Positions 3,518 to 48,147 are shown, numbered from the stretch's first letter. The stretch: DNA of 50,295 bases from a virus (IMGVR_UViG_3300042673_002653:1-50295), one strand, 5' to 3'. A program made the numbers and translations. The notes: generated by a model not told the origin, from the letters alone.

Positions 3518-3964
3518 TCATTGGCTCAGCGGCCGGACCATGATCGCGAGCTGGGCGTCAGCGTTGCGGTCGCCCTCGTCGAGATGGCTGATCAGTCCCG
3601 AATGCTCCTGCGCCAAGCGGCGGCACCGGGCCTTCACTCTTTCGACGACGGCCGTAGCCTGGGCGACGAACTCGGCGTCGGTCGCGGCGTCCGGGATGTC
3701 CTGCAGAGCGGCCTCGGCAAGTTCTGACGCCGTGCCAGCCTGGATTGCCGACTGGACAACACTCGCCGACCATCCGCTGGCCTCGGCGTCCTCACCAAAG
3801 GTCTGGGCCCAGTGCGCCCCGGTCTGTTCGTAGACCCGGTAGCCGAAGGATTTACACATGCCCATCGCGGCGGCGGCCCGTCCGATCCGCTCGCCTTCCT
3901 CGATCACCTCGTCCTGCGTGTAGTCTTGGGCCAGTAAGGCGCCAGCGAGGATCAGGGCGATCAT
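3518..3964 (-). CDS. Putative exported protein
   Basis: N-terminal MIALILAGALLAQD signal-like segment; ATGA overlap with the cI stop. Confidence 0.75.
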   Translation of the reverse strand: MIALILAGALLAQDYTQDEVIEEGERIGRAAAAMGMCKSFGYRVYEQTGAHWAQTFGEDAEASGWSASVVQSAIQAGTASELAEAALQDIPDAATDAEFVAQATAVVERVKARCRRLAQEHSGLISHLDEGDRNADAQLAIMVRPLSQ

Positions 3965-4413: not shown

Positions 4414-4656
4414 ATGACTGAGACCGTTCGCACCTTCATCGACAAGCTGGATGGCAATGGAGCCGTGGCGAAGGCCACTGGGTATACCGAAGGGGCAGTC
4501 GCTCTGTGGGTTCACCGCAACCGGCTCCCCCGGAACGCTTGGCCCGAGCTGATGAAGGCGTTCTCGCACGTCACGCTGGACAGCTTGCTCGCGCTCGAAG
4601 CTTCGACCGCCGCCCCCGCCAACGACACCCTCCCCCAATCAGAGGCGGCGGCATGA
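4414..4656 (+). CDS. Cro-like HTH regulator
   Basis: FIDKLDGNGAVAKATGYTEGAVALWVHRNRLP, Cro-type; divergent from cI. Confidence 0.85.
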   Translation: MTETVRTFIDKLDGNGAVAKATGYTEGAVALWVHRNRLPRNAWPELMKAFSHVTLDSLLALEASTAAPANDTLPQSEAAA

Positions 4657-5156
4657 CCCATCGCATCGACATTGGGCGTGGCATGGCCGCTCTCATCGAC
4701 GACGCCGACGTCGCCCTGATCGGGGAGCGCCGCTGGCACGCTCGACCCGCGAAATCGAAGACGGGCGTCCAGATCGGCTGGTACGTCCAGCGGCACGATG
4801 CCGGCGGCACGACCTATCTGCACCGAGTGATCATGGGCGCTGGCCCTGGCCAACTGGTCGATCACATCGATGGCGACGGACTGAACAACACCCGCGCGAA
4901 CCTCCGCATCTGCACCCGCGCCCAGAACAACGCCAATCGCGTCTGCGCCAAGGGCTCGTCTGGCTATCGCGGCGTTCATCCTGAGCCCCGCAATGGCCGC
5001 TGGTATGCGCGGATCGAGGTCAATGGTCGCCCTCGCTCGCTCGGATGCTTCGCCACTCCCGAAGAAGCAGCACGAGCCTATGACGCCGGCGCTCTGGCCG
5101 CTCATGGCGAATTCGCACGGCTGAATTTCCCTAACGAACATCAGAGGGCGGCCTGA
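4653..5156 (+). CDS. HNH endonuclease with AP2 domain
   Basis: LHRVIM...VDHIDGDGLNNTRANLR, then SSGYRGV...WYARI...LGCFATPEEAARAYD...HGEFARLNFP. Confidence 0.92.
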   Translation: MTHRIDIGRGMAALIDDADVALIGERRWHARPAKSKTGVQIGWYVQRHDAGGTTYLHRVIMGAGPGQLVDHIDGDGLNNTRANLRICTRAQNNANRVCAKGSSGYRGVHPEPRNGRWYARIEVNGRPRSLGCFATPEEAARAYDAGALAAHGEFARLNFPNEHQRAA

Positions 5157-13990: not shown

Positions 13991-14020
13991 AAGGCTCCTC
14001 CCTCGCGGCGGGGCCTTTTT
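13991..14020 (+). terminator. tR'-like intrinsic terminator
   Basis: AAGGCTCC...GGGGCCTT followed by a T-run. Confidence 0.7.
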
Positions 14021-14099
14021 CGTTTCCGGCGCCGACCATGTTCTGACCTGCGGGGATGGCTGGATCGGCTGAGAGAGACGAAAGCACACCCTCTTTCTT

Positions 14100-14174
14100 A
14101 TCCGACTAGCTCAGCAGGTAGAGCGCCGGTCTCCAAAACCGGTTGGCGAGGTTCGAGTCCTCGGTCGGGTGCCA
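14100..14174 (+). tRNA. tRNA-Trp (CCA)
   Basis: Acceptor ATCCGAC/GTCGGGT, D arm GCTC/GAGC, anticodon arm CCGGT-CTCCAAA-ACCGG, T arm CGAGG-TTCGAGT-CCTCG, discriminator G plus encoded CCA. Confidence 0.93.
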
Positions 14175-14188
14175 GTCGCGGAGGCCTG

Positions 14189-14686
14189 ATGGCCCGCCCC
14201 TCCTTGTTCAACGAGGCGATTGCCGGTGAAATCTGCGAGCGCATCGCCGACGGCGACAGCCTCCGATCCATCTGCGAGGGTGCCGACTATCCCGAGCGTC
14301 GGACGGTTTTCAGGTGGCTCGCCGATCCTCAGCATGCCGAGTTCCGTCGCCAGTACGCGCTCGCGCGCGAGGCCTCGGCGGACGCAGACGACGACGACAT
14401 TCGCGACATGGCCAAGCGGGTCGAAGCTGGAAAGCTGGAACACCAGGCCGCTCGGGTCGCGATCGACGCCAAGAAGTGGTCCGCCGGCAAGCGGAAGCCG
14501 AAGGTCTACGGGGACAAGATGGCCTTGGTCGGCGGCGGCAAGGACGATGCGCCGATCAGCCATTCCCATGCCTTCGACCTGAAGGACGCCAGCGACGAGG
14601 AGCTTGAAGTCATTGAGCGCTTCGTTCGCCGTCGAGCTGCCGACGCTGGAAGAGATCAGGGCGGAGCGGGAGAGGCGGAGGGCTGA
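14189..14686 (+). CDS. Terminase small subunit
   Basis: MARPSLFNEAIAGEICERIADGDSLRSIC...KWSAGKRKPKVYGDK (Sf6 gp1-like); GGAGG RBS. Confidence 0.9.
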   Translation: MARPSLFNEAIAGEICERIADGDSLRSICEGADYPERRTVFRWLADPQHAEFRRQYALAREASADADDDDIRDMAKRVEAGKLEHQAARVAIDAKKWSAGKRKPKVYGDKMALVGGGKDDAPISHSHAFDLKDASDEELEVIERFVRRRAADAGRDQGGAGEAEG

Positions 14687-16175
14687 AGCCGAACGCGCTC
14701 GACTGGTCAAGGATCAGGGCGCGATCCGTGCACGCTGCGACGGCCTGCACGGGTTCATCGAAGAGCACTGGTCTATTCTGGAGCCCAAGCGACCGTTCGT
14801 GACGGGCTGGGCGCTTCAGGCCATGTGCCGGCATCTCGAAGCGGTCACCGACGGCAAGATCCAGTTCCTGCTGATGACCGTGCCGCCGGGGATGATGAAG
14901 TCCCTGCTGCTGGTGTTCTGGACCGCATGGGAATGGGGACCGCGCGCCCGGCCCGACCTTCAGACGCTGGCCACCTCCTACAGCCAGGCCAACGTCCTCC
15001 GCGACAACCTCAAGCTCCGGCGCCTAATCGAGAGCGATCAGTACCGGGCCCTCTGGCCTCTGAACCTGCGGGCCGATCAGAACGCCAAGGGCAAGTTCGA
15101 GAACACCGACAACGGGTTTAGCGAGGCCCGTCCATTCAGTTCCATGACCGGCGGCCGGGGTGACCGGGTCAAGGTCGATGACCCCCACTCGACCGAGAGC
15201 GCCGAGTCCGACGCCGAGCGCGAGACCGCCGTCCGCATCTTCCGCGAAGGCATCTCCGACCGGATGAACGACGTGCAGACGTCCGCCATCGTCATCATCA
15301 TGCAGCGGCTGCACGCCAAGGACGTCGCGGCGGTCGCCTTGGAACTGGACATCGGCTTCGTCCACCTGAACCTCCCGATGGAGTTCGAGGCCGAGCGCGT
15401 CGGCGACGACGGCAAGGTGAGCGGCGGACCGTGCCGGACCTACGTCGACGGCGAACTGTTCTTCGAGGATCCGCGCATTCGCGAAGGCGAACTGCTCTTC
15501 CCCGAGCGCTTCCCCCTCGCCCAGGTCGCCAAGCTCAAGAAGGCCAAGGGCTCATACGCATGGGCTGGGCAATATCAGCAGCGCCCCTCCCCTCGTGATG
15601 GCGGCATATTCCTCCGGGAGTGGTTCAAGACGGCGTCGGTCCTGCCCGCAGGGATGAAGACTACCGTCCGGGCGTGGGATATCGGCGCAACAGAGGGCGG
15701 CGGAGATCCAAGTGCTGGCGTCCGCTGCACGATGGTCGGGACCGGCGACGAGGCCTCATACTACTTCACAAACTGCCGGACAGATCAGTGGAGCCCCGCA
15801 CAGTTCGAGGCCGAGCTTAAGCTGACCGCCGCCGCTGACACTATGGCCGTGACGGTCAGATTGCCTCAAGACCCCGGCGCGGCCGGCAAGGGCTACGTCC
15901 AGACCCTGGTCAAGAAACTGCAGGGCTATTCCGTGAAGGTCGCCCAGCCGACCGGATCCAAGCTCACGCGCGCAACCGCGCTGGCCACCCAGGCTGAGGC
16001 CGGGAACGTATTCATCCTGACAACGGGGGACGCCATGCGAGACGCCTGGATTGAACCGTTCGTGGACGAGCTGTGCGTCTTCCCGTCCGGGGCCCATGAC
16101 GACCAAGTCGACGCCGCCGCCGACGCCTTCAACGAACTGGCCCTCGGCTCCGTCTACAGCCTGGACAACGTCTGA
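14604..16175 (+). CDS. Terminase large subunit
   Basis: VPPGMMKS Walker A, TGGRGD, VDDPH Walker B, IMQRLH, YQQRP, RAWD, HDDQVDA; start may be TTG 14613. Confidence 0.95.
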   Translation: MKSLSASFAVELPTLEEIRAERERRRAEAERARLVKDQGAIRARCDGLHGFIEEHWSILEPKRPFVTGWALQAMCRHLEAVTDGKIQFLLMTVPPGMMKSLLLVFWTAWEWGPRARPDLQTLATSYSQANVLRDNLKLRRLIESDQYRALWPLNLRADQNAKGKFENTDNGFSEARPFSSMTGGRGDRVKVDDPHSTESAESDAERETAVRIFREGISDRMNDVQTSAIVIIMQRLHAKDVAAVALELDIGFVHLNLPMEFEAERVGDDGKVSGGPCRTYVDGELFFEDPRIREGELLFPERFPLAQVAKLKKAKGSYAWAGQYQQRPSPRDGGIFLREWFKTASVLPAGMKTTVRAWDIGATEGGGDPSAGVRCTMVGTGDEASYYFTNCRTDQWSPAQFEAELKLTAAADTMAVTVRLPQDPGAAGKGYVQTLVKKLQGYSVKVAQPTGSKLTRATALATQAEAGNVFILTTGDAMRDAWIEPFVDELCVFPSGAHDDQVDAAADAFNELALGSVYSLDNV

Positions 16176-17539
16176 TGTGGTTCGGCGACCGCCTGGCCAA
16201 CCTCATCACGGCGATGGGCACGCAGAAGGACAAGGCCACCCGCACCCGGCACTACATGCGGGAGCTGGATCAGGGTTCGGCCCTGACCATGTATCGGTCG
16301 GACTGGATCGCCCGAAAGGTGGTGGACATACCGGCCTTCGACATGATCCGCGAGGGGCGGAACTGGCAGGCTGACGACGCTCACATCGAGGCGCTGGAGA
16401 AGGAAGAGGCCCGGCTGCAGATCTGGCCGAAGCTGGCCAAGGCGCTTGCTCTGGCCCGGCTCTACGGCGGCTCAGCCCTGGTCATGGGTGTCGGCACGGA
16501 CAACCCGGCAACCGAGCTCCGCCCCGAAAGTGTCCAGCAGGGCGGTCTGGCCTATGTCCACGTCGTCAGCCGATACGAGATCTCGGTTGGAGAAATCGAG
16601 AAGGACCCGGCCTCTCCCGGCTGGGGCGAGCCGACCTACTATTCGATGTCCGGTGCCCGGAGCGGATCGCTACGCATCCACCCCAGCCGGGTCATCCCGT
16701 TCATCGGGGCTGAACTACCCGACCTGACGTTCTCGCAGGGCTGGGGAGACTCGGTCCTGCAGGCCGTCGACGAGGCCATCGAGAACGCCGGGCTGGCTGG
16801 AACCGCTATCGCCCAGCTCCTCCAGGAAGCTAAGGTCGACGTCTTCAAGCTGAAGAACTTCATGGCCAACGTCGGTGACGAGGCCTACCGCGCCAAGGTC
16901 CTGACCCGCCTGAGCCTAGCTAACCAGGGCAAGTCTATCTCCAGCGCCCTCGTCATGGATGCCGAGGAAGAGTGGGACCAGAAGCAGATCAGTTTCGCTC
17001 AACTGCCCGAGGTGCTGCAGCTCTATCTCCAGATCGCCGCCGGCGCCGCCGACATCCCGGTAACCCGCCTGCTGGGCCAATCCCCGGCCGGCCTAAATAG
17101 CACCGGCGAGAGCGACGTCCGCAACTACTACGACCGCCTCGCCGCCGAGCAGAAGGTGAAGATCCGCCCCCGACTGGAGAAGCTGGACGCGGTTCTGATC
17201 CCCTCGGCCCTCGGCAGCCGCCCGGCCGAAATCCACTTCACCTTCGCCCCGCTGTGGCAGATCAGCGAGAAGGAGAAAGCGGACATCTTCAAGACCAAGG
17301 CGGACGGAGCGCGACAGTTGGCCGGCACCGGCGGTGCATCCCCGCCCCTCCTGCCCATCGAGGCGCTGTCGGATGCGCTCTGCAATACGTTCATTGAGGA
17401 CGGAAGTTTACCGGGCCTCGAGGCGGCGCTCGAAGAATATGGCCGGTTGTCGGAACAGGAAGACGACCCCGACGCCGACGCCGCTGCGTTGGGCGCGCGA
17501 GACCCGGAAACGCTGGAAGAGGAACCGGCCAAGGTGTAG
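16175..17539 (+). CDS. Portal protein (DUF1073 family)
   Basis: YRSDWIARKVVDIPAFDMIR, ARLYGG, IHPSRV, ADIPVTRLLGQSPAGLNSTGESDVRNYYD. Confidence 0.92.
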   Translation: MWFGDRLANLITAMGTQKDKATRTRHYMRELDQGSALTMYRSDWIARKVVDIPAFDMIREGRNWQADDAHIEALEKEEARLQIWPKLAKALALARLYGGSALVMGVGTDNPATELRPESVQQGGLAYVHVVSRYEISVGEIEKDPASPGWGEPTYYSMSGARSGSLRIHPSRVIPFIGAELPDLTFSQGWGDSVLQAVDEAIENAGLAGTAIAQLLQEAKVDVFKLKNFMANVGDEAYRAKVLTRLSLANQGKSISSALVMDAEEEWDQKQISFAQLPEVLQLYLQIAAGAADIPVTRLLGQSPAGLNSTGESDVRNYYDRLAAEQKVKIRPRLEKLDAVLIPSALGSRPAEIHFTFAPLWQISEKEKADIFKTKADGARQLAGTGGASPPLLPIEALSDALCNTFIEDGSLPGLEAALEEYGRLSEQEDDPDADAAALGARDPETLEEEPAKV

Positions 17540-17612
17540 GATTAACGGCCCCCCGGATGCGTCAACATCACGGGAGGCCTAGCCACCAACGATCGTGGAA
17601 GGATCGATAATG
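17537..17612 (+). promoter_or_regulatory. HNH-cassette promoter and two-hairpin RNA leader, copy A
   Basis: TAGGAT -10; GGCC..GATG-CGTCAA-CATC..GGCC; TAGCC; CGATC-GTGGAAG-GATCG; ATA-ATG. Confidence 0.7.
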
Positions 17613-18203
17613 GATACCGGCATCAATATGCCTGTGGACCGCCGCTGTGAAGCGTGTGGCGTCCAACTCGAACGCAAGACGGGCGAGAAGCCCGTTCACT
17701 GGAAGCGGCGTCGTTACTGCGGCCTGACATGTGGTCGGACCCACGGACGCAACCGCCAGCCCTTATCAGAACGGTTCTTCTCAAAGGTCGAGGTCACACC
17801 TGACTGCCACGAATGGCAGGGAGCCAAGGGTCGCGACGGATACGGCAGCATCGCCCTCGGAGACGGAACCACAGGTTTAGCCCACCGGGTGGCTTATGCG
17901 CTGGCCTTCGGCGAGATCGGTAACGGAGCCCAAGTACTTCACCGGTGCGACAATCCCGGTTGCGTGAACCCAGCCCACCTCTTTCTGGGCGACCACGCCG
18001 ACAACATGGCCGACATGGCCAGCAAGCAGCGCGGACGGTCAGCGATCGGAGCCGCTCACCATGCCGCGAAACTCAACGCGCCGAAGGTGAGGGCGATCCG
18101 AGCGGACACCCGAGAGCAGCGTGAGATCGCCGCCGACTACGGAGTCTCCCATGCGACAGTCGGCGCGATCCAGCGACGAGAAACTTGGAAGCACGTCGCT
18201 TAG
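17610..18203 (+). CDS. HNH homing endonuclease with N-terminal Zn finger and C-terminal HTH
   Basis: CEAC...YCGLTC; RFFSKV; AHRVAY; LHRCDNPGCVNPAHLFLG...N; KLNAPKVRAIR...IAADYGVS...WKHV. Confidence 0.9.
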   Translation: MDTGINMPVDRRCEACGVQLERKTGEKPVHWKRRRYCGLTCGRTHGRNRQPLSERFFSKVEVTPDCHEWQGAKGRDGYGSIALGDGTTGLAHRVAYALAFGEIGNGAQVLHRCDNPGCVNPAHLFLGDHADNMADMASKQRGRSAIGAAHHAAKLNAPKVRAIRADTREQREIAADYGVSHATVGAIQRRETWKHVA

Positions 18204-18372
18204 CGTCGATCAGGTCGCTCAGCTTCTCTACCGGCTGGCGCGAGACCACCTGACCCGCGAGCAGATCGAAGCCGCCATCGCGGAGACCCGCCCCGAGGTC
18301 GCCGCCTTTACTGACGCTAAGCGCGGACGCTGGGCCGTCGAGCAGTCCCGCCGCCTCTCCCGCGAGACCTGA
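18151..18372 (+). CDS. Small hypothetical ORF or gene remnant
   Basis: Phage-like codon usage from ~18204 (SVDQVAQLLYRLARDHL...); the only starts lie inside the HNH gene. Confidence 0.4.
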   Translation: MRQSARSSDEKLGSTSLSVDQVAQLLYRLARDHLTREQIEAAIAETRPEVAAFTDAKRGRWAVEQSRRLSRET

Positions 18373-18382
18373 GGACATCGCC

Positions 18383-19648
18383 ATGCAGTTCACGGACGCC
18401 GCGCCGATCGCAGGCGTGCGCCTGACCCGTGACGGTTACGCCGTCGCCGAGGTCCGCGCCGCCCGCACTGGCATTCAGCAATACGCAGGGCGTGAAGTCG
18501 GGCGGCCCGACCTAGCTGTGGTCAACGTCTACCGCCCGCCGGAAAGCGTGTTCGCGGCCGACAGCATGGCCAGCTACGGCTTCAAGCCGGTCACGATCAA
18601 TCATCCTGCCGAGGGCGTCACCGCGGACAGCTGGAAGGATCTGGCTGTCGGTGTCGTCGGTGGCGACGTGGTGCGGGATGGCGGCTTCGTGAAGGTCCCG
18701 CTGGCTCTGATGGACGCGGCGGCGATCAAGGCGGTGCAGGACGGCACCCGCGAGATCAGTATGGGCTACGTCTGCGACCTCGCCTTTGAGGACGGCGTGA
18801 CGCCCGAGGGCGAGCCGTATCAGGCCGTGCAGCGCGACATCCGCATCAATCACCTCGCGCTCGTGCCGTCAGGTCGCGCGGGGCCGCAGTGTCGTGTCGG
18901 GGACGCAAAGCCCGATCTGGCGAAGGCCAAAGGCAAGCTGAGAGCCGCTATAGCGCTCCACGAAAAGCACATGAACGGCAGCGCCCCCACGACGGGCAAG
19001 GCCGGAGAGAAGTCGCAACAAGCGATGATGGATTTGATGGAGGAGGCCCTCGCGGCCCTTTCTGGAGAGTCCGCTCGCAGCGGCATGGGGTCAATGGACG
19101 CGCACCCCTCCCAAGCGCTCTGTTCCACAGGAGACCGTCACATGACGCTCAAGACCATCGCCGTGGACGGCCTCCCGGTCGAAACCACGGACGCCGGCAT
19201 CGCAGCCATCGACAAGCTGCGCGGCCTTCTCTCCACCGCGGACGCCGCTTTGGCCACCGCCAACACCACTCACGCCCAAGCGCTCGCTGCCAAGGACGCC
19301 GATCTGGCGAAGAAGGACGCCGAGATCGCCGACCTGAAGACCAAGGTCATCGACGGCGCCGCTCTGGATGCTCTGGTCGCTGATCGCGCCGCAGTCGTCG
19401 CCAAGGCCAAGGCCCTGGACCCCAAGGTCGTGATCGACGGCAAGTCGAACGCCGAGATCAAACGGGCCGTCCTGGGTGACGCCGCCAAGGACAAGTCGGA
19501 CGCCTACGTGGACGCCGCCTTCGACCTGAAGACGGCCGATGCCCAAAGCGCCGACCCGCTGCGCAAGGTCATCTCCGACGGCGCTCCCAACGGCGGCGTC
19601 CACGTCGCTTCCATCCGCGACGCCGCGCGCGTCGCTGGCCTGAACTAA
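18383..19648 (+). CDS. DUF2213 prohead protease/scaffold protein
   Basis: RTGIQQY, YRPPESVF, KPVTINHP, EISMGY, INHLALVPSGRAG; C-terminal Ala/Lys-rich coiled coil with possible nested start at 19142. Confidence 0.9.
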   Translation: MQFTDAAPIAGVRLTRDGYAVAEVRAARTGIQQYAGREVGRPDLAVVNVYRPPESVFAADSMASYGFKPVTINHPAEGVTADSWKDLAVGVVGGDVVRDGGFVKVPLALMDAAAIKAVQDGTREISMGYVCDLAFEDGVTPEGEPYQAVQRDIRINHLALVPSGRAGPQCRVGDAKPDLAKAKGKLRAAIALHEKHMNGSAPTTGKAGEKSQQAMMDLMEEALAALSGESARSGMGSMDAHPSQALCSTGDRHMTLKTIAVDGLPVETTDAGIAAIDKLRGLLSTADAALATANTTHAQALAAKDADLAKKDAEIADLKTKVIDGAALDALVADRAAVVAKAKALDPKVVIDGKSNAEIKRAVLGDAAKDKSDAYVDAAFDLKTADAQSADPLRKVISDGAPNGGVHVASIRDAARVAGLN

Positions 19649-19660
19649 GGAGCCACGACA

Positions 19661-20134
19661 ATGGCAGTCAATCAGGACACCTACACTTCGGTCATGGCCG
19701 CGGGCTATCCCGGCATGATCGCCAACGGCGAGACCTCCAACCGCATTACGCGGACCTGTGAGGACTCGGCCGGCATTCAGTTCGGCGCTCCGGTCTATCG
19801 TGGCTCGGGCGACCACGGCTGCACGGCCACGGTCGGCACTGCGGCGACCTTCCTCGGCTTCGCCATCGCCCACGAGGCCCTCGGCCTTCTGAGCGGTCAG
19901 ACCGCCGACCGCTACCAGCAGTACGACAACGTCGCGATCCTGACCCAGGGCGTGATGTGGGTCACCGCAACCGGCGCCAACGTCGACGGCGCTGCCGTGA
20001 CGATCGGCACGGGCGGCGGCGCTGCTGACGCCATCGGAGACACCGCCGCCGACGCCACCCACATCGCCACCGGCGGCTGGGTGTTCGACGACACCACCTC
20101 TGCGACGGGCCTGGCCCGCATCGCCAAGCGCTAA
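19661..20134 (+). CDS. Head decoration/cement protein
   Basis: Between scaffold and capsid; AGYPGMIA...IQFGAPV...ILTQGVMWV. Confidence 0.8.
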   Translation: MAVNQDTYTSVMAAGYPGMIANGETSNRITRTCEDSAGIQFGAPVYRGSGDHGCTATVGTAATFLGFAIAHEALGLLSGQTADRYQQYDNVAILTQGVMWVTATGANVDGAAVTIGTGGGAADAIGDTAADATHIATGGWVFDDTTSATGLARIAKR

Positions 20135-20146
20135 GGGGATCAGACC

Positions 20147-21238
20147 ATGATCATCAATTTCGCCGATGCGACCGGTGGCCTGTTCACCGACGCCGCATCC
20201 TTCCTCGCCGCCAGCGACAGCCAACGCGAGTTGGCCTTCCAACGCTGGGCCGCCTACGACGCCGCCCTCGCCGCCACCTTCGGCGACAAGGCCTCCGAGT
20301 TCTTCGTGGACGCCCAGGTCGGCCGCGCATTCCTGACCCCGCAGCTGTATCGGATCGAAACGCAGGTCTACCTGCGCCGCTATCCGAACGCCGACCTGAC
20401 CGGCCTTCTGCCGATCAACACGGACGGCGACATGTGGGACGTCGGCACGGTGTTCTACAGCATGGACGAAGCCGGCAAGGCCGAGTTCCTGAGCGGCAAG
20501 GGCTTCGACATGCCCTACGCCTCGACGCTGATGGACCAGAAGAGCCGCGGCTTCCACCTGGCCGGCATCGGCTACGAGTGGTCGACGCAGGAGCTTCAGC
20601 GCGCCGCCAAGCTGGGTCGTTCGCTGTCCGCTGACAAGGCCGCCGCCGCCCGCAAGGCCGCGCAGTTCTTCAAGCGCTCTATCGCCATGACCGGCCGCGC
20701 GCCGGGCACTGCGGCGAGCGAGAAGGGCTGGACCGGCTTCGTGAACGATCCGAACGTCCCGACCGCCAACGTCGCGGCCGACGGCACCGGCTCGACCACG
20801 CCCTGGGCCGGCAAGACCCCGGACCAGATCAGCCGGGACATTTGGGGCGCCGTCAACGCGGTCGAGCAGCAGACCGGCGAGACCCACACCGCAACCACGG
20901 TGGCCCTGCCGACTGAGAAGCTGCGCTACATCGAGCAGACCCGCATGTCGGACACCGGCTCGACCATCCTGGCCTACATCCGCGGCAACCGGGACGGTGG
21001 CGACAACATCGTCTTCAAGCCGATCCGCGAACTGAAGGGCGCCGGCGCTTCGGGCACCGACCGCCTGGCGGCCTACGACTCCTCGGAAGAGGTCGTCCAG
21101 TTCCACCTGCCGGGCGACCACGAGTTCCTGCCCGCGTTCCAGAAGTCGTCCATGACCTACGACGTCGGCGGCATCATGAACGTCGGCGGGACCGAGGTTC
21201 GCCTGCCCAAGGCCATCACCTATCGCGACGGGATCTGA
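20147..21238 (+). CDS. Major capsid protein (DUF2184 family)
   Basis: QLYRIETQVY, GYEWSTQELQRA, GFVNDPNV, GGTEVRLPKAITYRDGI. Confidence 0.92.
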   Translation: MIINFADATGGLFTDAASFLAASDSQRELAFQRWAAYDAALAATFGDKASEFFVDAQVGRAFLTPQLYRIETQVYLRRYPNADLTGLLPINTDGDMWDVGTVFYSMDEAGKAEFLSGKGFDMPYASTLMDQKSRGFHLAGIGYEWSTQELQRAAKLGRSLSADKAAAARKAAQFFKRSIAMTGRAPGTAASEKGWTGFVNDPNVPTANVAADGTGSTTPWAGKTPDQISRDIWGAVNAVEQQTGETHTATTVALPTEKLRYIEQTRMSDTGSTILAYIRGNRDGGDNIVFKPIRELKGAGASGTDRLAAYDSSEEVVQFHLPGDHEFLPAFQKSSMTYDVGGIMNVGGTEVRLPKAITYRDGI

Positions 21239-21241
21239 GCC

Positions 21242-21487
21242 ATGACCAAGCTGACCAACTACACCCCCGGCCCCAAGGGCGTGCACACCGAGGACCAGGG
21301 TCTGATCTACATCGGCGGCGGCCAGACCAGCGAGGACCTGAACATCAGCGACGGCGAACTGAAGGCGGCCAAGGCCACCGGCTGGTTCTCCAAGCAGAAG
21401 GACCCGCTGGACCACGACGACGACGGCAAGAAGGGCGGGGCCGCTCCGGCGCCCGACGCCCCGAAGCCTGAACCGACGAAGGCCTGA
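21242..21487 (+). CDS. Small virion-associated protein
   Basis: 81 aa right after the capsid gene; DPLDHDDDGKKGG motif. Confidence 0.75.
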   Translation: MTKLTNYTPGPKGVHTEDQGLIYIGGGQTSEDLNISDGELKAAKATGWFSKQKDPLDHDDDGKKGGAAPAPDAPKPEPTKA

Positions 21488-21503
21488 CCGATGGCCGGGC
21501 ATG

Positions 21504-21528
21504 GAGGCGGGGGTTAAGCCCCCGTCTC
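21504..21528. terminator. Hairpin between convergent genes
   Basis: GAGGCGGGGG-TTAAG-CCCCCGTCTC. Confidence 0.6.
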
Positions 21529-22091
21529 TAGTCCGACCAGCTCTCACCGCGCTGTATGCGTCCAACCTGAGACTGACCAACGCCGAACTCAGCGCCAACG
21601 TCCACTTGCCGGGCCTTGCCCTTCATCGACCGGATGTATTCGACTGCCTCTGGTGACAGCTTGGCGGTTGGAGACGTCGATCCGGAATACTGAGTACCGT
21701 GAAGAATTCGGTCCGCCGCGTTCTCCTTGGCCGACGCCCATCGCAGATGTCTTGGATGGACGCAGCCGTCAGGCCCTCTGCCGCAAGAATGGGCGGCGTG
21801 ATCAGTTGCCGACGGTGCCGGGCCGTTCACCATCTCGCACATCACTCGGTGGCCGCTGGTATTCTGATACTTCGCGTAGCCAGAGGGCAGCCGGGCGAAA
21901 GGCCAGATTAGGCAGTCATCTCCTTGGTGGGATGAGTGCTCAGCGAGCCACGCGGCTGGTCCGCCGTTACCGACCTTGCCGCCTAACGGATCACCGTGGT
22001 CGCGCCACCGACGGCTGTGTATGCGGCAGAAGTTGTTGCTGTGGTGCGGCTTGCCGCAGTCCGGCACAGAACATAGACGAGCGATAGCCAT
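21528..22091 (-). CDS. His-Cys/HNH-type homing endonuclease with C-terminal HTH, in reverse orientation
   Basis: CSVPDC...CRIH; CLIWPF; HRVMC; AAHSCGRGPDGCVHPRHLRWA...EN; KLSPEAVEYIR...FGVGQSQVGRIQRGESW. Confidence 0.88.
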   Translation of the reverse strand: MAIARLCSVPDCGKPHHSNNFCRIHSRRWRDHGDPLGGKVGNGGPAAWLAEHSSHQGDDCLIWPFARLPSGYAKYQNTSGHRVMCEMVNGPAPSATDHAAHSCGRGPDGCVHPRHLRWASAKENAADRILHGTQYSGSTSPTAKLSPEAVEYIRSMKGKARQVDVGAEFGVGQSQVGRIQRGESWSD

Positions 22092-22186
22092 TTCGACCTC
22101 TCAACAGGTTGGCTTGGTTAGGACCCGTCGAGAGGTAGGATGCTCGGCGGGTCCGGCATTTTACCCCAATGGACAGGGGTATCCAA
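22089..22186 (-). promoter_or_regulatory. HNH-cassette promoter and two-hairpin RNA leader, copy C
   Basis: Minus strand TTGGAT-17-TAAAAT; GGACCCG.CGAG..CTCG.CGGGTCC; TAACC; ACCT-GTTGAG-AGGT; CGAA-ATG. Confidence 0.65.
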
Positions 22187-22599
22187 TGGCTCAACACGGA
22201 ACAGAGCAAGGCTTCACGGACTGGCTCGCAGCTCGCGGCCATGACCTGCCCGATGGCGCCCCCAGCCCGGCCATTCTTCTCCAGCGAGCGACCGACTACC
22301 TCGATGCAGTCTACGGTGCCCGGCTGGCCAATGCCGAGGCATCGGACGCTCTGGACCTCGCCCTGGAGCGCGCGACCTACGCCGCCGCCTGGCATGAGGC
22401 GCAGAACCCCGGCTCGCTGTCTGTGTCGGTCGTTGCATCGCAACAGGTGAAGCGCGAGAAGATCGACGTCATCGAGACCGAGTATTTCCAAGGGACTGGC
22501 GGGGCTCTGGCCACGGCAACGCCGCAGCTGTCGCTCGTGGATGGTATCCTCGCCCCGTTCCTCGACAAGCCCGCCCTGCCCGCCGTCTTCGTGGTCTGA
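22186..22599 (+). CDS. Head-tail adaptor (DnaT-like)
   Basis: LQRATDYLDAVY...VKREKIDVIETEY...VDGILAPFL. Confidence 0.8.
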   Translation: MAQHGTEQGFTDWLAARGHDLPDGAPSPAILLQRATDYLDAVYGARLANAEASDALDLALERATYAAAWHEAQNPGSLSVSVVASQQVKREKIDVIETEYFQGTGGALATATPQLSLVDGILAPFLDKPALPAVFVV

Positions 22600-22964
22600 T
22601 GACCGCCTTCGACTATTCCCGCCCCCTCGCCACGGCGAACCAGCTGATCGAGCGCTACGGCCAGCTCGGGGCGGTTGAGACGCCGGGCGAGCGCATGGGC
22701 CCTGCCTATGACCCCGGCGAGCCGGTCCCGACGTCCACCCCTGCCCGCTTCGTCATCGTCGGCTTCGAGGCCAAGGAGATCGACGGTTCGCGGGTCCTTG
22801 CTACCGACAAGAAGGCCCTGGTCGCGCCCGGCGTGCTGACCGCCGATCCGACCCCCGCAGACCGCCTGGTTGAAGCGAACGGCGTCTCGTGGTCCATTGT
22901 CGGCGTCGATACCCTTCGGCCGGCGGAGACGACTCTGCTGTTTACTTTGCAGGTGCGCCGATGA
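22599..22964 (+). CDS. Head closure protein
   Basis: FDYSRPLATANQLIERYG...IDGSRVLATDKK...LQVRR. Confidence 0.8.
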   Translation: MTAFDYSRPLATANQLIERYGQLGAVETPGERMGPAYDPGEPVPTSTPARFVIVGFEAKEIDGSRVLATDKKALVAPGVLTADPTPADRLVEANGVSWSIVGVDTLRPAETTLLFTLQVRR

Positions 22965-23119
22965 CCCCAGAAGATCTGGATGCCCTAAAGAGGGATGCTG
23001 CCCGGTATCGCTGGCTACGTGACGACAACGCATACGCACCGGAAGAAGGTCATGTGCGGGGCGGCGAAGAATTGGATGCCCTCTGCGATGAAGGCCTAGC
23101 CGAGGAAGCTGACCGATGA
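22961..23119 (+). CDS. Small hypothetical protein
   Basis: DAARYRWLRD motif common in phage accessory proteins; ATGA overlaps. Confidence 0.65.
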   Translation: MTPEDLDALKRDAARYRWLRDDNAYAPEEGHVRGGEELDALCDEGLAEEADR

Positions 23120-23298
23120 TCGCGACCATCGTAGCTCGTCACTCCCCGCAAGACGTCGCCCTCACCCGAGCGATGACGAAGAACCATGTCGTCCGCACCG
23201 ATAGCGACAACACCCGCGTCCACTACAGGGCGACGGAGCGCCGTTGGAACCCGCAGTCGCGCGAAGCCCGCTTCGTTCTGGAACCCATCTCGGCGTGA
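23116..23298 (+). CDS. Small hypothetical protein
   Basis: 60 aa, translationally coupled. Confidence 0.5.
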   Translation: MIATIVARHSPQDVALTRAMTKNHVVRTDSDNTRVHYRATERRWNPQSREARFVLEPISA

Positions 23299-23501
23299 CC
23301 GCCCATCGGGGCAAGGCCATCCTCGCCGCTGCGGCGTGGAAAGACCTGAACGCCAAGTCGGCGAACTATCAGGCTGCGATCCTCCGGGGCGATGACGAGA
23401 CGGCCAAGGCCATCCGTCAGGAAGCCCACGACATCCTCGACACCCACCTCGACCTGTCAGGCGAAGTCGCCCAGGCCGCGCTGGACATCCTCAAGGACTG
23501 A
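23295..23501 (+). CDS. Small hypothetical protein
   Basis: GTGA overlap; helical 68 aa. Confidence 0.6.
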   Translation: MTAHRGKAILAAAAWKDLNAKSANYQAAILRGDDETAKAIRQEAHDILDTHLDLSGEVAQAALDILKD

Positions 23502-23504
23502 CCC

Positions 23505-24539
23505 TTGGCCAGAACCCGAGTGCAACGGCAGCTCTATGCCGAGCTGCTGGAGCGCTATGGGCGCGCGGTCGCAGACGCGTTTTTCAAGGCGATCGACGAC
23601 ATCAGGAAAGCCGCATCGCTCCAGGCTGTGACCGCAGCGATCGAAGCCGGGGACATCGAAGGCGCGCTCGATGCTCTGGACATCGATCCAGCCGCCTTCA
23701 ACGACATGCTGGACCGGATCAAGGACGCCCAGACGGCCGGGGGCAACTATAGCACCGAGACGATGCCGAAGCGGCGCCCGGACGGGACAGCCTTCACGGT
23801 GCGCTGGGATGGTCGGGCGGTTGAGGCCGAAAGCTGGATGCGCCAGCACGCCGCCGATCTCGTCACCCACACGACGCAGGACATGCGCGAGGCGGCTCGG
23901 CAATCGCTCGTCGCCAGCCTCGAACGTGGCGACAACCCCAAACGCGCCGGCCTCGAACTTGTCGGACGCATCAACCGGGTGACCGGGAAAAGGACCGGTG
24001 GAACCCTGGGGCTGTCGGTGCCTCAAGAGGAATATGTGCGGAGAGCCAGAGAAGAACTGGCCTCTACGTCGCCGGACTTCATGTCCAACTACCTCGGCCG
24101 TAAACGGCGGGACAGAAGGTTCGATAGATCTGTCGCGAAGGCCATCAGGGAGGGCAAGCCGGTCCCACCGGAGATCGCCGCGAAAGCGATTACAGCCTAT
24201 TCGAACCGACTACTCCAGTTGCGGGGCGAGACGATAGGCAGGCACGAGGCCTTCGCAGCGCTCTCAGCGGGCAGGCAGCAGGCCTACGAGCAGGCGGTCG
24301 CCTCGGGAAAGATTACTGCGGCAGCAGTAACGAAGAGCTGGCGTCACTTGTCGAGTCTGGACTACCGACCCGATCATCGCCTGATGAACGGTAAGGGCGT
24401 GGGCCTGATGGAGAGCTTCGTTCTGCCGGACGGTACGACGATGCTTTACCCGCACGACTCATCGGCCCCGATCAAACACACCGTCGGATGCCGGTGCCAA
24501 GCTGATTACAAAGTCGATTTTCTGGCCGGGATCAGGTAG
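23505..24539 (+). CDS. Head morphogenesis protein (SPP1 gp7/MuF-like)
   Basis: RGETIGRHEA...KSWRH...RPDH...MLYPHD...VGCRC. Confidence 0.85.
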   Translation: MARTRVQRQLYAELLERYGRAVADAFFKAIDDIRKAASLQAVTAAIEAGDIEGALDALDIDPAAFNDMLDRIKDAQTAGGNYSTETMPKRRPDGTAFTVRWDGRAVEAESWMRQHAADLVTHTTQDMREAARQSLVASLERGDNPKRAGLELVGRINRVTGKRTGGTLGLSVPQEEYVRRAREELASTSPDFMSNYLGRKRRDRRFDRSVAKAIREGKPVPPEIAAKAITAYSNRLLQLRGETIGRHEAFAALSAGRQQAYEQAVASGKITAAAVTKSWRHLSSLDYRPDHRLMNGKGVGLMESFVLPDGTTMLYPHDSSAPIKHTVGCRCQADYKVDFLAGIR

Positions 24540-24613
24540 TCTGAAACGGGCCGAAGCGGTGCGTCAACACCGGCTCCGGCCCTAACCGAAACGACCATTG
24601 GAGGGTCGATATG
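24537..24613 (+). promoter_or_regulatory. HNH-cassette promoter and two-hairpin RNA leader, copy B
   Basis: TAGTCT -10; GGGCCG..GGTG-CGTCAA-CACC..CGGCCC; TAACC; CGACC-ATTGGAG-GGTCG; AT-ATG. Confidence 0.7.
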
Positions 24614-25435
24614 GCTGATCGAGCGATATGCTCCGTCGAGGGTTGCGGCAAGCCCTCAGAGCGCCGTGAATGGTGCAGCAAACACTATCAGCGCTGGAAG
24701 CGTCACGGCAGCGCGACCCAGACCCATAGGTATGAGGGGCAGCGATGCTCCATTGTCGACTGCGAGCGCCCGGCGCGGGCTTACGGCCTCTGCGGCACGC
24801 ACAACATGCGAATCCGCCGACATGGCGACCCACACGCCCATCCAGCGGTCCGCCGTTTCGGGTGTCTGGTGAAGGACTGTGATCGGGAGCACGCGTCGCG
24901 GGGCTACTGCAAACTCCATTACGACCGCGTCCTCACGACCGGCGATCCTCAAGCTGACGTGCCGCCAAGGATTGCGCCGGGTACTCGCGTCCAGTGGCTT
25001 CTCGACCACATTGATCATCGCGGCGAGGCCTGCCTGATCTGGCCGTTCAGCCGCGACCACAATGGGTATGGCAGGATCACGGATGAAGGAGTCCAGAGAT
25101 CGGCTTCCAGAACCATGTGCGCGCTGGTCAACGGCCCGCCCGAGGTCAGCCGCCTGCAGTCAGCGCACAACTGTGGTCAGGGCCACACCGGCTGCGTACA
25201 TCCTCAGCATCTGCGCTGGGATACTTGCGGCGGCAACCACGCCGACAAAGCCCTGCACGGCACAGAGATCAAGGGCGAGGATCAGTGGCAGGCACGGCTC
25301 ACCGAGGCCGATGTCCACTACATTCGCAGCCAGCGCGGGATCGCGAAGCAGAGCGATCTGGCGGCTCGGTTCGGAATCAATCAGACGTCCATAAGCAAGG
25401 TTCAACGCCGCGTCGCGTGGGCTTGGCTCGAGTGA
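24611..25435 (+). CDS. His-Cys/HNH-type homing endonuclease with three N-terminal Cys/His repeats and C-terminal HTH
   Basis: CSVEGC..WCSKH, CSIVDC..LCGTH, CLVKDC..YCKLH; CLIWPF; SAHNCGQGHTGCVHPQHLRW; RLTEADVHYIR...LAARFGINQ. Confidence 0.88.
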   Translation: MADRAICSVEGCGKPSERREWCSKHYQRWKRHGSATQTHRYEGQRCSIVDCERPARAYGLCGTHNMRIRRHGDPHAHPAVRRFGCLVKDCDREHASRGYCKLHYDRVLTTGDPQADVPPRIAPGTRVQWLLDHIDHRGEACLIWPFSRDHNGYGRITDEGVQRSASRTMCALVNGPPEVSRLQSAHNCGQGHTGCVHPQHLRWDTCGGNHADKALHGTEIKGEDQWQARLTEADVHYIRSQRGIAKQSDLAARFGINQTSISKVQRRVAWAWLE

Positions 25436-25441
25436 GGTCCA

Positions 25442-26029
25442 ATGGCCCAAGGCTCATTTTCCAGTCAGGTGAGCGCTTGGGTCGCTGAGACGAAAGAGCG
25501 AGCGGCGGCGGTCAAGAACGAGAGTACCCAGCGCGTGATTGAGATCATGCAGGAGCCAGGCCCATCCCGCGCGACCGTATCGAAAGCCATCGCTACTGGC
25601 GCTGGGCTGGGCAAGGTGAAGGCGGACGGAACCAGAGGGCGCAAGAAGCGAGCTTTCGGACCCGTCGCCAGAAGCGTTGGCGGCGTCGGAAATCTACCGG
25701 TCGATACAGGATTTCTCCGAGCCTCCTTGGTGGTGACGATTGGTGAGACGCTGCCGCCGCTGGTCGATAATCCGTCCGCTGATAGCTCGCACGCTTGGGA
25801 CGCGAGTGAGGTCAAGCTGACGCTATCAGGCGCGGACTTCGGTGACACGGTCATCGCCGCGTACACCGCCAAATACGCGCGGCGCATCGAATATGGCTTC
25901 ACCGGCACCGACTCCGCCGGACGCTCATACAGCCAGCGTGGAACCCGGTTTGTCGCCCTCGCGGCGCAGCAGTGGCAGCGCATCGTCAACGAAGTATGCG
26001 CGGAGGCTAAGAGCCGCGCGGGAGGATAG
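25442..26029 (+). CDS. Tail completion protein (HK97 gp10-like)
   Basis: FSSQVSAWV, LPVDTGFLRAS, YARRIEYG, AAQQW. Confidence 0.82.
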   Translation: MAQGSFSSQVSAWVAETKERAAAVKNESTQRVIEIMQEPGPSRATVSKAIATGAGLGKVKADGTRGRKKRAFGPVARSVGGVGNLPVDTGFLRASLVVTIGETLPPLVDNPSADSSHAWDASEVKLTLSGADFGDTVIAAYTAKYARRIEYGFTGTDSAGRSYSQRGTRFVALAAQQWQRIVNEVCAEAKSRAGG

Positions 26030-26032
26030 CCC

Positions 26033-26440
26033 ATGGCCGATCCCGCCGTCGTCGCCGCGCTGCTGTTCCAGCGGTGCGAGAGCATGGTCATCTCAGCGCC
26101 GACCATGCCCATAGCGTTCCCCGATGTGGCCTTCACGGCTCCGACTGACGGCAAGTATCTCAGGGTCGACTTCTTCGCCAACGCCCCGGCGTGGGAGAGC
26201 CTGTCAGGCGACGCTCTGAGCATGGGGCTTCTGCAAATCTCCGTCGTCTGGCCCAAGGGCGTCGGCGTCGTGAAGCCTCGGGAAGTCGCCCACCTCGTCG
26301 AAGCCCACTTCTCCAAGGGCCTCCAGATGTCCGGCCAAGGCGTCCGCGTGAAGGTCAGCCGCAAGCCTTGGACCGCGTCCCCGATCATCGAGGACACCCA
26401 GACCCTGACCCCGGTCACCATCCCCTGGACGGCGTCGTAG
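26033..26440 (+). CDS. Tail terminator-like protein (DUF4128-like)
   Basis: IAFPDVAFTAP, GLLQISVVWPKGVG, PVTIPW. Confidence 0.8.
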   Translation: MADPAVVAALLFQRCESMVISAPTMPIAFPDVAFTAPTDGKYLRVDFFANAPAWESLSGDALSMGLLQISVVWPKGVGVVKPREVAHLVEAHFSKGLQMSGQGVRVKVSRKPWTASPIIEDTQTLTPVTIPWTAS

Positions 26441-26492
26441 CCGACCGGTCGCCCTCTCGCCGCATGGGCAACGGCACCCCCAACAGGAGGCC

Positions 26493-26969
26493 ATGATGGC
26501 TCTTTCCGACGGCATCGGCTCGAAGGTCTTCATCGGCCCAGCCACCGCTTCTCTCGACGCCAGCACCATCACTGCGTTGACGCCCTGTGTCGAAGTGAAG
26601 GAGTGCGAATCCATTCCCGAATTCGGCGACTCCTCGGCGACGATCACCTTCACCTCCCTGAGCGCCGGCCGCGTCCGCAAGCGCAAGGGTGCGCGCGACG
26701 CCGGAGACATCACCGTCACCTTCGCCAACATCCCCGATGATCCGGGCCAACTCGCCATGATCGCCGCCGAGAAGTCGAAGTCCAACTTCGCCATCAAGGT
26801 CGTCGCGGCCGATGAGCCTGACGAGGACGGCACCCCCAGCGAATTCTACCTGATCGCCCTGGTCAACTCGGCGAAGGTCAACGTCGGCGCGTCGAACGCC
26901 GTGAACAAGCGCGCCTTCTCGCTGCTGATCCAGGACGTCCACGAAGTTCCGGCCGAAGCCGGCGCCTGA
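26493..26969 (+). CDS. Major tail tube protein
   Basis: SIPEFGDS...RVRKRKGARDAG...DDPGQ. Confidence 0.85.
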   Translation: MMALSDGIGSKVFIGPATASLDASTITALTPCVEVKECESIPEFGDSSATITFTSLSAGRVRKRKGARDAGDITVTFANIPDDPGQLAMIAAEKSKSNFAIKVVAADEPDEDGTPSEFYLIALVNSAKVNVGASNAVNKRAFSLLIQDVHEVPAEAGA

Positions 26970-27024
26970 CCCTCCCAACTTAACGTCGGGGTCGCGCCCC
27001 GGCGTCCTTTTCAAAGGACACACC

Positions 27025-47303: not shown

Positions 47304-47704
47304 CGAGTGGGCGCCTCGCCGAGGCCGAAGAAGCGCCAGCCGTTCCATCTGGCGCCAGTGATCCGAGACGCCACCGTCGAGAGCGACCGGTAGGTCTGTC
47401 CCTCATGCCGATAGCCCTCGGCGACCACCTCCACCTCGTGGCGCACGCCCTTCCACTCGCGGCTCAATCGCGAGCCGATCGGCGGCTTGGCCCGGCTTCC
47501 GACCGGCTGGGATCGTCGAAGGGCGTCTCGGGTCGCCCGGTCCAGACCGCCGAAGGCGGCGGCCTGAAGTTCCCAGGCGATCAGTCGTCGCATCAACCCG
47601 ACCGAGCGTGTGCCCGGTCGGGTTCCAAAAGCGGGTCTCCAGACCTTGGCCAGGTCCTCGAGGTCCATGGCGTCCAGGGCCGAAAGCTCGGCGTCCAGGC
47701 TCAT
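47300..47704 (-). CDS. DUF2924 domain protein
   Basis: IAWELQAAAFGGL...GSRLSREWKG...YRSLSTVASRITGARWNGWRFFGL. Confidence 0.9.
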   Translation of the reverse strand: MSLDAELSALDAMDLEDLAKVWRPAFGTRPGTRSVGLMRRLIAWELQAAAFGGLDRATRDALRRSQPVGSRAKPPIGSRLSREWKGVRHEVEVVAEGYRHEGQTYRSLSTVASRITGARWNGWRFFGLGEAPTR

Positions 47705-48075: not shown

Positions 48076-48147
48076 GATCGTCTCCGATGGTTAGCCGCCG
48101 GAATGGCGGCTGTACCGAGACGACCCGGCGACGGCCGGGCGGGATCA

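Follow-up and report, generated by a model that had tools for sequence, protein, structure and literature searches.

Three free-standing endonuclease genes, starting at 17610(+), 22091(-) and 24611(+), break up the head-gene block of a provirus (IMGVR_UViG_3300042673_002653; a complete IMG/VR provirus record of 50,295 bp, the whole of which was analysed and is called the window below). Each of these genes probably carries a sense/antisense control cassette of ~120 bp, of the type formed by symE and its antisense RNA SymR in E. coli. On sequence grounds, the most fitting reading of the element common to the three genes is that of a distant SymR relative with a wide dispersal, joined to the 5' leader that it would target and forming a control cassette for inserted mobile-element genes. 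From the features described here we infer that the provirus makes the antisense RNA, where its 3' end lies, and that translation is repressed by it.

On the gene strand, the three copies had a common order of parts over ~80 nt (Table 1): an A/T-rich, TAnnnT-like box, a GC-rich hairpin of 12–14 bp (hairpin 1), TAGCC or TAACC, and a short hairpin (hairpin 2) with a purine-rich ribosome-binding site (RBS), followed after 2–4 nt by ATG. All elements of the architecture that an initial annotation of the sequence had described at 17610, 22091 and 24611 were present, and the overlap with the RBS that it had pointed out was borne out, the Shine-Dalgarno (SD) sequence lying in hairpin 2 (GGAAGGA in the 17610 copy, with ATG at 17610). 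Its lettering of the copies needed correction: a pair sharing the loop CGTCAA and reusing the TAG stop of the upstream gene exists, but it consists of the 17610 and 24611 copies, and the odd copy is 22091, whose hairpin 1 has a 10-nt loop unlike the other two. Across the copies collected from other genomes as well, hairpin 2 had 4–7 bp and a mean folding energy of -5.3 kcal/mol, with part of the SD inside and the start codon free. A consensus scan of 17400–25600 found a sole sigma-70-like site, that of the 22091 copy, and from such sequences it is plausible that a sense promoter also exists at the cassettes. The 17610 and 24611 copies have only weak promoter-like sites of their own; as both genes lie inside the late operon, their mRNA is likely to come from read-through. 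At 22091, the sense RNA (22086–22164, - strand) has a second way to fold: the 3' arm of hairpin 1 (CCUCUCGACGGGU) can base-pair with the region of the SD hairpin (ACCUGUUGAGAGG), and the ribosome site would then be masked.

Two covariance models were run over the whole window. R1, comprising hairpin 1 and TAACC, was seeded with related sequences and the 24611 copy, and was run on both strands with filters off. It scored 67.4 bits at 24611 (a seed member), 39.5 bits at 17610 (E = 1.8e-9) and 18.8 bits at 22091 (E = 0.0019); the next best matches in the window had E = 0.14 and 0.26, so that E fell below 0.01 for the three copies only. R2, a full-length antisense model (positions 1–79) built from 18 viral copies only, 24611 among them, scored 86.1 bits at 24611 (seed member), 46.9 bits at 17610 (E = 3.1e-11) and 36.3 bits at 22091 (E = 3.6e-8), and found nothing better than E = 4.7 elsewhere in the window. 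The architecture shared by the three copies is beyond chance. A fourth endonuclease gene of the provirus, coding for an HNH-AP2 protein (4506–5156), had been said to lack the leader, and indeed neither R1 nor R2 gave a match near it; the cassette is thus not required by every free-standing endonuclease of the provirus. A possible fourth copy at 48134–48087(-) was rejected as a weak look-alike (R1, E = 0.26; R2, no match at E ≤5). It has a hairpin, CTAACC, an SD mini-hairpin and ATG, and stands before a DUF3489 gene (open reading frame (ORF) 48075–47701), which is followed by a DUF2924 gene and a gene for a large serine recombinase (45684–47348).

Folding and covariation indicated that the selected structure is on the strand opposite the genes. 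When hairpin 1 of 73 unique viral sequences was folded on both strands, the antisense form was the more stable in 72 (means -25.6 vs -19.4 kcal/mol for sense; Wilcoxon p = 1.3e-13), and it contained 160 G-U pairs, against 6 on the sense strand; the conserved apex contributed about one per sequence, and the stems all others. Hairpin 2 had 68 antisense and 6 sense G-U pairs, and was more stable as antisense in 33 and as sense in 24 of 60 cases (p = 0.006). Because a G-U pair on one strand is an A-C mismatch on the other, such asymmetry is a classical sign of selection on the opposite strand. The window copies folded to -37.5 kcal/mol antisense (z -5.0) vs -29.3 sense (z -3.2) at 17610, -37.2 (z -4.6) vs -30.2 at 22091, and -38.6 vs -32.1 at 24611.

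Covariation was examined in two gapless seeds, A4 and A7; a plain MAFFT alignment (A3) analysed with RNAalifold gave only the 4-bp apex, with the arms out of register. In the sense seed A4, 87.1% of cells were paired vs 68.6% after shuffling, and none of 500 shuffles reached the score; double changes occurred at 9 of 14 pairs, with zero G-U pairs and many A-C mismatches. The long helix (helix 3) of the antisense seed A7 was 96.8% paired. For 72 distinct viral copies, the values, taken from a model-fitted alignment, were 92.4% paired vs 68.6% shuffled and a covariation of 0.603 vs 0.189, again reached by none of 500 shuffles.

Conservation continued past the start codon. In 55 non-redundant viral copies anchored on that codon, it ran ~40 nt into the coding sequence (T at +17, A or T at +18, G37, G38, C39 and A41), and this in-ORF signal persisted in 39 ORFs not homologous to the window proteins. 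Read on the antisense strand, it resembled a promoter with TTG(A/C)C, a 17-bp spacer and TAnnnn; the -10 lay at about +13 to +19 and the -35 at about +37 to +42, and the start would fall near the A opposite T6 of ATGGCT. The composite motif TA-N16-18-N-GNCAA at +16 to +19 was present in 15 of 48 ORFs (11 of the 37 non-homologs), against a background of 0.0025 per sequence window (p ~1e-21). In an independent set taken from the bacterial matches listed, 27 non-redundant copies had T at +18 (20/27), A at +19 (19/27) and A at +14 (19/27), which is TAnnnT on the antisense strand. The candidate promoters given for the window copies in Table 1 were placed from this register; two of the copies spend rare CTA or ATA codons there in a GC-rich genome, ATA being used in 24611. 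The sense positions -9 to -3 were A in 24–47 of 64 copies, corresponding to a U-rich tail on the antisense strand. The apex TTGACG was also considered as the -35 of a second antisense promoter and was discarded, there being by eye no consistent -10 at 16–18 bp.

In E. coli, SymR is described as a 77-nt RNA opposite the 5' end of symE, with its promoter embedded in the symE ORF (PMC1891008), and two silent changes in CATTCT are described as abolishing it (Kawano et al. 2007, PMC1891008). In the E. coli symE sequence, CATTCT occupies +13 to +18, the same register as the in-ORF signal found here. By alignment, the R2 matches began at +6 of all three window ORFs (17615, 22086 and 24616), and E. 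coli symR likewise begins at +6 of symE. When Rfam was searched with E-value thresholds, SymR (RF01809) was the best family at three independent loci, on the antisense strand and over the full 77-position model: 30 bits at L095, 27 bits in the window at 24616–24545(-) (E = 0.0012–0.0017) and 22.6 bits at L106. Over model positions 1–77 of 77, the aligned sequences shared, in order, AG(U/C)CAU, an anti-SD stem-loop, a (G/A)UUAG linker and a GUG-UUGRCG-CAC apex. Reciprocally, the viral-only model R2 found the annotated E. coli K-12 symR (3836–3919 of an 8-kb locus) at 29.7 bits and E = 4.4e-7; the next best match in that locus had 6.8 bits. Upstream of E. coli symE, inspection by eye showed a sequence resembling a LexA box.

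The predicted antisense RNAs had the corresponding parts. That of the 17610 gene would consist of a 5' stem-loop with an anti-SD loop, a GGCUA linker, and a 3' stem-loop with the apex GAUG-UUGACG-CAUC; that of the 24611 gene would have an AGCCAU end, a stem-loop with CCUCC in the loop, a GGUUA linker, the apex GGUG-UUGACG-CACC, and GUUUCAG. In folding, the AGCC at the antisense 5' end paired with the linker GGUU (24616 with 24583–24587 in the window), and E. coli symR (L327, 3836–3875) has AGUC and GAUU as the corresponding pieces, a compensatory difference (ATGACT/TAATC vs ATGGCT/TAACC). Such a pairing would account for the joint conservation of the second codon and TAACC; among the sampled copies, this closing helix was too invariant for a covariation test. 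The initial annotation could assign the element to no named family. RF01809 matches consistently and in both directions, yet far below threshold and on the other strand, so that an existing family has been found for the element only in part.

A search of IMG/VR with a pattern fixing the apex and TARCC matched 118 stretches, of which 87 (79 unique) folded as a hairpin; the other 31 were chance matches, mostly from one coding repeat. An ORF followed in 74 of the 79 unique copies, starting ATGGCT or GTGGCT in 57 of the 74 and lying 22–26 nt past TAACC in 48. A reading of the TAR of TARCC as a conserved stop codon was abandoned: it had no consistent frame, and the unbiased matches included TGACC and TCACC. 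Pfam families among the 74 viral ORFs, counted as overlapping family totals, were mainly nucleases (HNH 17, HNH_3 16, HNH_5 14, HNH_4 5, endonuclease VII 2, GIY-YIG 1), with T5orf172 (2), MUG113 (2), Bro-N (2), Rha (1), D12 methylase (1), RadC (1) and Com (2) as further cargo. One ORF coded for TnpB (OrfB_IS605/Cas12f-like), and one had a LAGLIDADG-like motif by regular expression only. Homologs of the window proteins made up 20 of the 74.

R2 gave 79 matches in 100 viral loci, with 2–4 copies on several contigs and four within the 12.7-kb locus L135; per genome, it matched twice in Methylobacterium, six times in Steroidobacter (G002) and four times in Streptomyces. In two cultured phages, Rhizobium phage RHph_Y1_10 and Pseudanabaena phage Pam1, the model started at +6 of an annotated HNH gene. 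Bacterial genomes gave at least 120 pattern matches (L207–L326), and 54 of those listed folded as an antisense hairpin below -18 kcal/mol. By record title, the matches listed came from Alpha-, Beta- and Gammaproteobacteria, Actinobacteria (Streptomyces, Kitasatospora), Acidobacteriota, Verrucomicrobiota, Planctomycetota and metagenome-assembled genomes of candidate phyla, the assignments of assembled genomes possibly including mis-binned phage contigs. Their cargo (44 ORFs, among the matches listed) included four serine recombinases, two tyrosine integrases, Cas1, an ArdC-like protein and one HNH_3 protein. Many of these ORFs were small, 70–130 aa, and without a Pfam family. SymE_toxin was absent from the 74 viral and the 44 listed bacterial cargo ORFs. 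No account of the cassette was found in the literature searched.

The link to endonucleases that had first been proposed is not exclusive, given this bacterial cargo and the 80 loci of HNH_3 relatives of the 17610 protein, none of which had the element. A narrower idea, that the leader travels with the HNH_3 family, failed on the same count, the module being present only at L002 and L003 and at a site 1.1 kb upstream in L004. The element is thus not a trait of one nuclease family. At L002, a viral contig, a homolog of the 24611 protein (46% identity) had the same leader with compensatory stem changes.

Its portability was seen most directly behind the portal gene. In three of eight related phages (L345, L346 and L357), the module and an ORF stood right after the portal stop; in the other five (L341, L343, L344, L347 and L348) there was no module, and a DUF2213-type head gene began ~15–20 nt past the stop. 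Because module and ORF were present or absent together, the module was part of the insert. The covariation and this 3/8 to 5/8 distribution agreed with the earlier proposal of a portable structured module that moves with inserted mobile genes. The site just after the portal stop was an insertion hot spot among these eight portal relatives. In one of them (L345, 3855–3931; portal 70% identical), the post-portal cassette had a flipped apex, with TTGACG on the gene strand, and TAAGC and ATGCCT in place of TAGCC and ATGGAT.

The following mechanism is proposed. A promoter in codons 5–14 of the endonuclease ORF would fire backwards and give an RNA of ~80 nt from +6, fully complementary to the start codon, the SD hairpin and the remaining 5' leader. 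This RNA would end in the long, G-U-containing stem-loop and then a U-rich stretch, which on the sense strand would be the A-rich box initially taken for a -10. By analogy with the action of SymR on symE, for which there is experimental proof in E. coli, it may pair with the endonuclease mRNA. First contact would probably be between the two apical loops, which are complementary; UURRCG, the loop of the antisense RNA, fits the YUNR U-turn, a motif of antisense recognition loops. Pairing would block ribosome binding, trigger cleavage of the duplex, or both, and only an excess of endonuclease mRNA over antisense RNA, e.g. during strong late read-through, would allow the enzyme to be made. The module is separable, coming and going with the insert, and has been fused at codon 2 to many unrelated cargo genes.

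Several observations weigh against this reading. In the 27 listed bacterial copies, the -10 signal was strong but shifted by 1 nt, and the -35-like signal was weaker and mostly of TTGCG type, which is why the strict composite promoter motif was found in none of them. The U-rich tail was weak in the three GC-rich window copies, and a simple terminator scan did not flag them. The RF01809 scores (22.6–30 bits) fell far short of the gathering score, 61 bits. Two other gammaproteobacterial genomes were sampled for SymE-family loci, and the module stood at 0 of 10, making the tie to symE itself loose. Most copies were gathered by a pattern that fixes the apex and TARCC, so the conservation of these parts is overstated in that set; the unbiased model matches had TGACC, TAGCC or TCACC linkers and varied loops. 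The best covariation values depended, as said, on alignment to the model. Of 25 matches to an inverted-apex pattern, about 12–13 were real copies with a flipped loop, so that loop orientation is not absolute. Sense-strand signals were real as well: SD purines peaked at -9, a faint TTG stood ~32 nt upstream of the hairpin, and the frequent ATGGCT or GTGGCT opening is itself a signal on that strand. Some function of the sense leader probably coexists with the antisense RNA.

A rival account is that the sense 5' leader is the only functional RNA, as had been supposed at first, and that there is no antisense RNA; the 5' hairpin would stabilise the mRNA or bind the helix-turn-helix (HTH) or Zn domain of the endonuclease, and hairpin 2 would sequester the RBS as a translational switch. 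Both hairpins do form on the sense strand (z -2.4 to -4.2), the SD lies inside hairpin 2 in nearly all copies, the pairing of the hairpin 1 3' arm with the SD region is available at 22091, and a -10-like TAnAAn box ends 4–8 nt before the hairpin base, so that the mRNA would begin at the hairpin. This account is nevertheless unlikely. It has to set 6 G-U pairs and recurrent sense A-C mismatches against 160 G-U pairs and a better fold on the opposite strand, hairpin 2 is weak at the mean given above, and the cargo (several HNH types, GIY-YIG-like proteins, endonuclease VII, TnpB, Bro-N, recombinases and Cas1) is too varied for one autoregulatory protein. It also leaves unexplained the promoter-like conservation, reading backwards, within unrelated ORFs and the end-to-end match to SymR. 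Nothing observed calls for binding by the C-terminal HTH or Zn repeats, and the claim that the sense-strand leader is the selected RNA is not supported.

We regard as highly unlikely a cassette resembling the PeSL elements of T4-type phages, in which the hairpin would terminate antisense transcription and the whole would serve insulation and gene shuffling rather than antisense control. PeSLs have been characterised as motifs that combine terminator and promoter and are linked to indels (PMC4122927), and the GC-rich hairpin, which as antisense has a U-rich run, the position at the borders of inserted genes and the several copies per genome would all suit such a cassette. The motifs described there are, however, lineage-specific and without a conserved in-ORF part (PMC4122927), whereas here the SD and the start codon are conserved, and so is the coding sequence for ~40 nt, which holds a backward promoter signature at the canonical 17-bp spacing; a known antisense RNA can be aligned to the unit in its entirety, and what follows the hairpin on the sense strand is UAACCAA and no U tract. 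Least probable, and hardly to be expected, is a DNA-level site for cassette movement (a single-stranded DNA hairpin, or a recombination or target site such as IS200/IS605 ends, REP or attC): G-T wobble is tolerated in DNA hairpins too, so that strand asymmetry alone cannot tell RNA from single-stranded DNA, one TnpB and several recombinase or integrase cargoes are known, and loop-inversion variants occur, but downstream of the three genes no counterpart end was seen, such a site would have no use for a conserved SD, start codon and promoter spacing, and the E. coli homolog is a documented RNA. A tRNA minihelix or RNase P mimic, attC, an IS200/IS605 end and an HK022 put-like antiterminator were rejected for a misfit of geometry or part order and for the lack of an Rfam match.

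If the antisense reading is right, its meaning goes beyond this provirus. Outside the T4 model, a large class of free-standing homing endonucleases, and prophage recombinases with them, would come under a type of antisense RNA so far filed as an enterobacterial type I antitoxin. The mechanism would be directly testable, as carriers are culturable (RHph_Y1_10, Pam1, and Methylobacterium and Streptomyces prophages). The Met-Ala starts and the rare ATA and CTA codons near codon 6 of unrelated mobile genes would be accounted for, and there would be a case for a wider Rfam SymR family, with symE/SymR as one cargo of a portable control module. In annotation, the module would flag inserted selfish genes together with a predicted, unannotated small RNA gene on the opposite strand.

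A broader proposal is more tentative, and we put its chance at somewhat below even. An ancient, self-contained SymR-like cassette of ~120 bp, from the U-rich tail to codon 14, might be a common plug-in "safety catch" for DNA-cutting or DNA-recombining mobile genes. It would recombine independently of its cargo, be fused to it at codon 2 (ATGGCT), and be spread over phages and prophages of Alpha-, Beta- and Gammaproteobacteria, Actinobacteria, Acidobacteriota and cyanobacteria, E. coli symE/SymR being one domesticated instance and not the founder. With loop and linker shared, resident copies might cross-silence incoming ones, which would be a form of anti-homing or multicopy immunity.

The positions of the cassette parts and of the genes around them are collected in Table 1. 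The order in the head block was Sf6-type small terminase, large terminase, portal, DUF2213, major capsid protein and MuF-like protein. In a phmmer search of the cargo ORFs of other module-bearing viral loci, the 22091 protein had matches, the best at 8.9e-59. The stop of the 24611 gene was only 7 nt ahead of the next ORF. Megablast of window positions 14000–27000 against GenBank phages gave no match. A tRNA gene at 14100–14171(+), either directly before the long ORF with the Sf6-type small-terminase domain or in overlap with its 5' part, scored 57.5 bits and was the only match in the window when Rfam was scanned at gathering thresholds.

Table 1. Cassette parts, endonuclease genes and head-block genes in the window; antisense RNAs and promoters are predictions
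Feature	Position	Strand	Details
HNH_3 endonuclease gene, C-terminal HTH-like tail	17610-18203	+	Pfam HNH_3 3.8e-11; between portal and DUF2213 genes
17610 copy, weak sense promoter-like TGGAAG-17-TAGGAT	17514-17542	+	below consensus-scan cut; TAG is the portal stop
17610 copy, -10-like TAGGAT	17537-17542	+	overlaps portal stop TAG
17610 copy, sense leader (presumed antisense target)	17547-17606	+	hairpin 1 17547-17579 (loop CGTCAA), TAGCC 17580-17584, hairpin 2 17590-17606
17610 gene, predicted SymR-like antisense RNA	17615-17537	-	R2, full model 1-79
17610 copy, candidate antisense promoter	17651-17623	-	-35 TTCACA 17651-17646, 17 bp, -10 TATTGA 17628-17623; inferred from register
Zn-ribbon/His-Me-finger endonuclease gene	22091-21528	-	paralog of 24611 protein; opposite strand inside head block
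22091 copy, sense promoter-like TGGATA-16-TAAAAT	22158-22185	-	divergent intergenic region; 9/12 consensus matches
22091 copy, sense leader	22154-22096	-	TAAAAT box; hairpin 1 22154-22121, TAACC 22120-22116, hairpin 2 22109-22096; ATG 22091
22091 gene, predicted SymR-like antisense RNA	22086-22164	+	R2; apex loop diverged
22091 copy, candidate antisense promoter	22050-22079	+	-35 CTTGCC 22050-22055, 18 bp (TTGCCG with 17 bp), -10 TAGACG 22074-22079; inferred
Endonuclease gene, four Cys/His Zn-ribbon repeats and His-Me finger	24611-25435	+	after MuF-like gene
24611 copy, -10-like TAGTCT	24537-24542	+	overlaps stop of MuF-like gene
24611 copy, sense leader	24548-24608	+	hairpin 1 24548-24582 (loop CGTCAA), TAACC 24583-24587, hairpin 2 24592-24608; ATG 24611
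24611 gene, predicted SymR-like antisense RNA	24616-24538	-	R2 and Rfam RF01809
24611 copy, candidate antisense promoter	24651-24623	-	-35 TTGCCG 24651-24646, 17 bp, -10 TATCGC 24628-24623; inferred
HNH_3 + AP2 endonuclease gene	4506-5156	+	fourth endonuclease gene, without cassette
Portal (Portal_3)	16175-17539		head block
DUF2213 protein	18383-19648		head block
Major capsid protein (PF09950)	20147-21238		head block
MuF-like protein	23505-24539		head block

Classical cis-antisense control of mobile-element genes is known from IS10 RNA-OUT/RNA-IN, FinP/traJ and P22 sar/ant. The predicted cassette resembles these in having a short, stable stem-loop RNA that would be made from a promoter in or next to its target, cover the RBS and start codon, recognise its target through an apical loop, and restrain a DNA-processing or regulatory protein of a mobile element. 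Each of the classical systems is tied to one element, whereas the cassette is common to unrelated cargo, and the Rfam scans gave no sequence or model similarity to IS10 RNA-OUT, FinP or P22 sar. For T4 homing endonucleases such as I-TevI, an RBS-overlapping hairpin is expected to limit translation, an intramolecular device that depends on the promoter of the mRNA. A hairpin over the SD of an endonuclease gene is common to both; here, in contrast, it is weak, and the evidence points to an intermolecular antisense partner.

Like the present element, PeSLs are small conserved regulatory cassettes that stand, in several copies per genome, where variable or inserted phage genes begin or end, and they have been proposed to aid modular shuffling (PMC4122927). 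They differ, as far as that account describes them, in combining a terminator with an early promoter, in being specific to phage pairs, and in having no coding part, antisense promoter or SymR-like fold (PMC4122927). Conservation here enters the ORFs, and the window phage is not of T4 type (Sf6-type terminase, Portal_3, DUF2213 and PF09950).

The closest likeness is to SymR and symE, with the RNA 5' end at +6 of the ORF and the promoter in the ORF, its -10 at about +13 to +19; these positions are computed for the present cassettes, and for symR the -10 is experimentally defined. The E. coli target is SymE, an AbrB-fold protein, whereas the cargo here comprises HNH and other nucleases and recombinases, the window targets being HNH-type nucleases and not members of the SymE family (PF08845). 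The hosts here are phages and prophages of many phyla, not Enterobacteriaceae, and ATGACT with TAATC in E. coli is matched by ATGGCT with TAACC in the present cassettes, a compensatory difference of second codon and linker.

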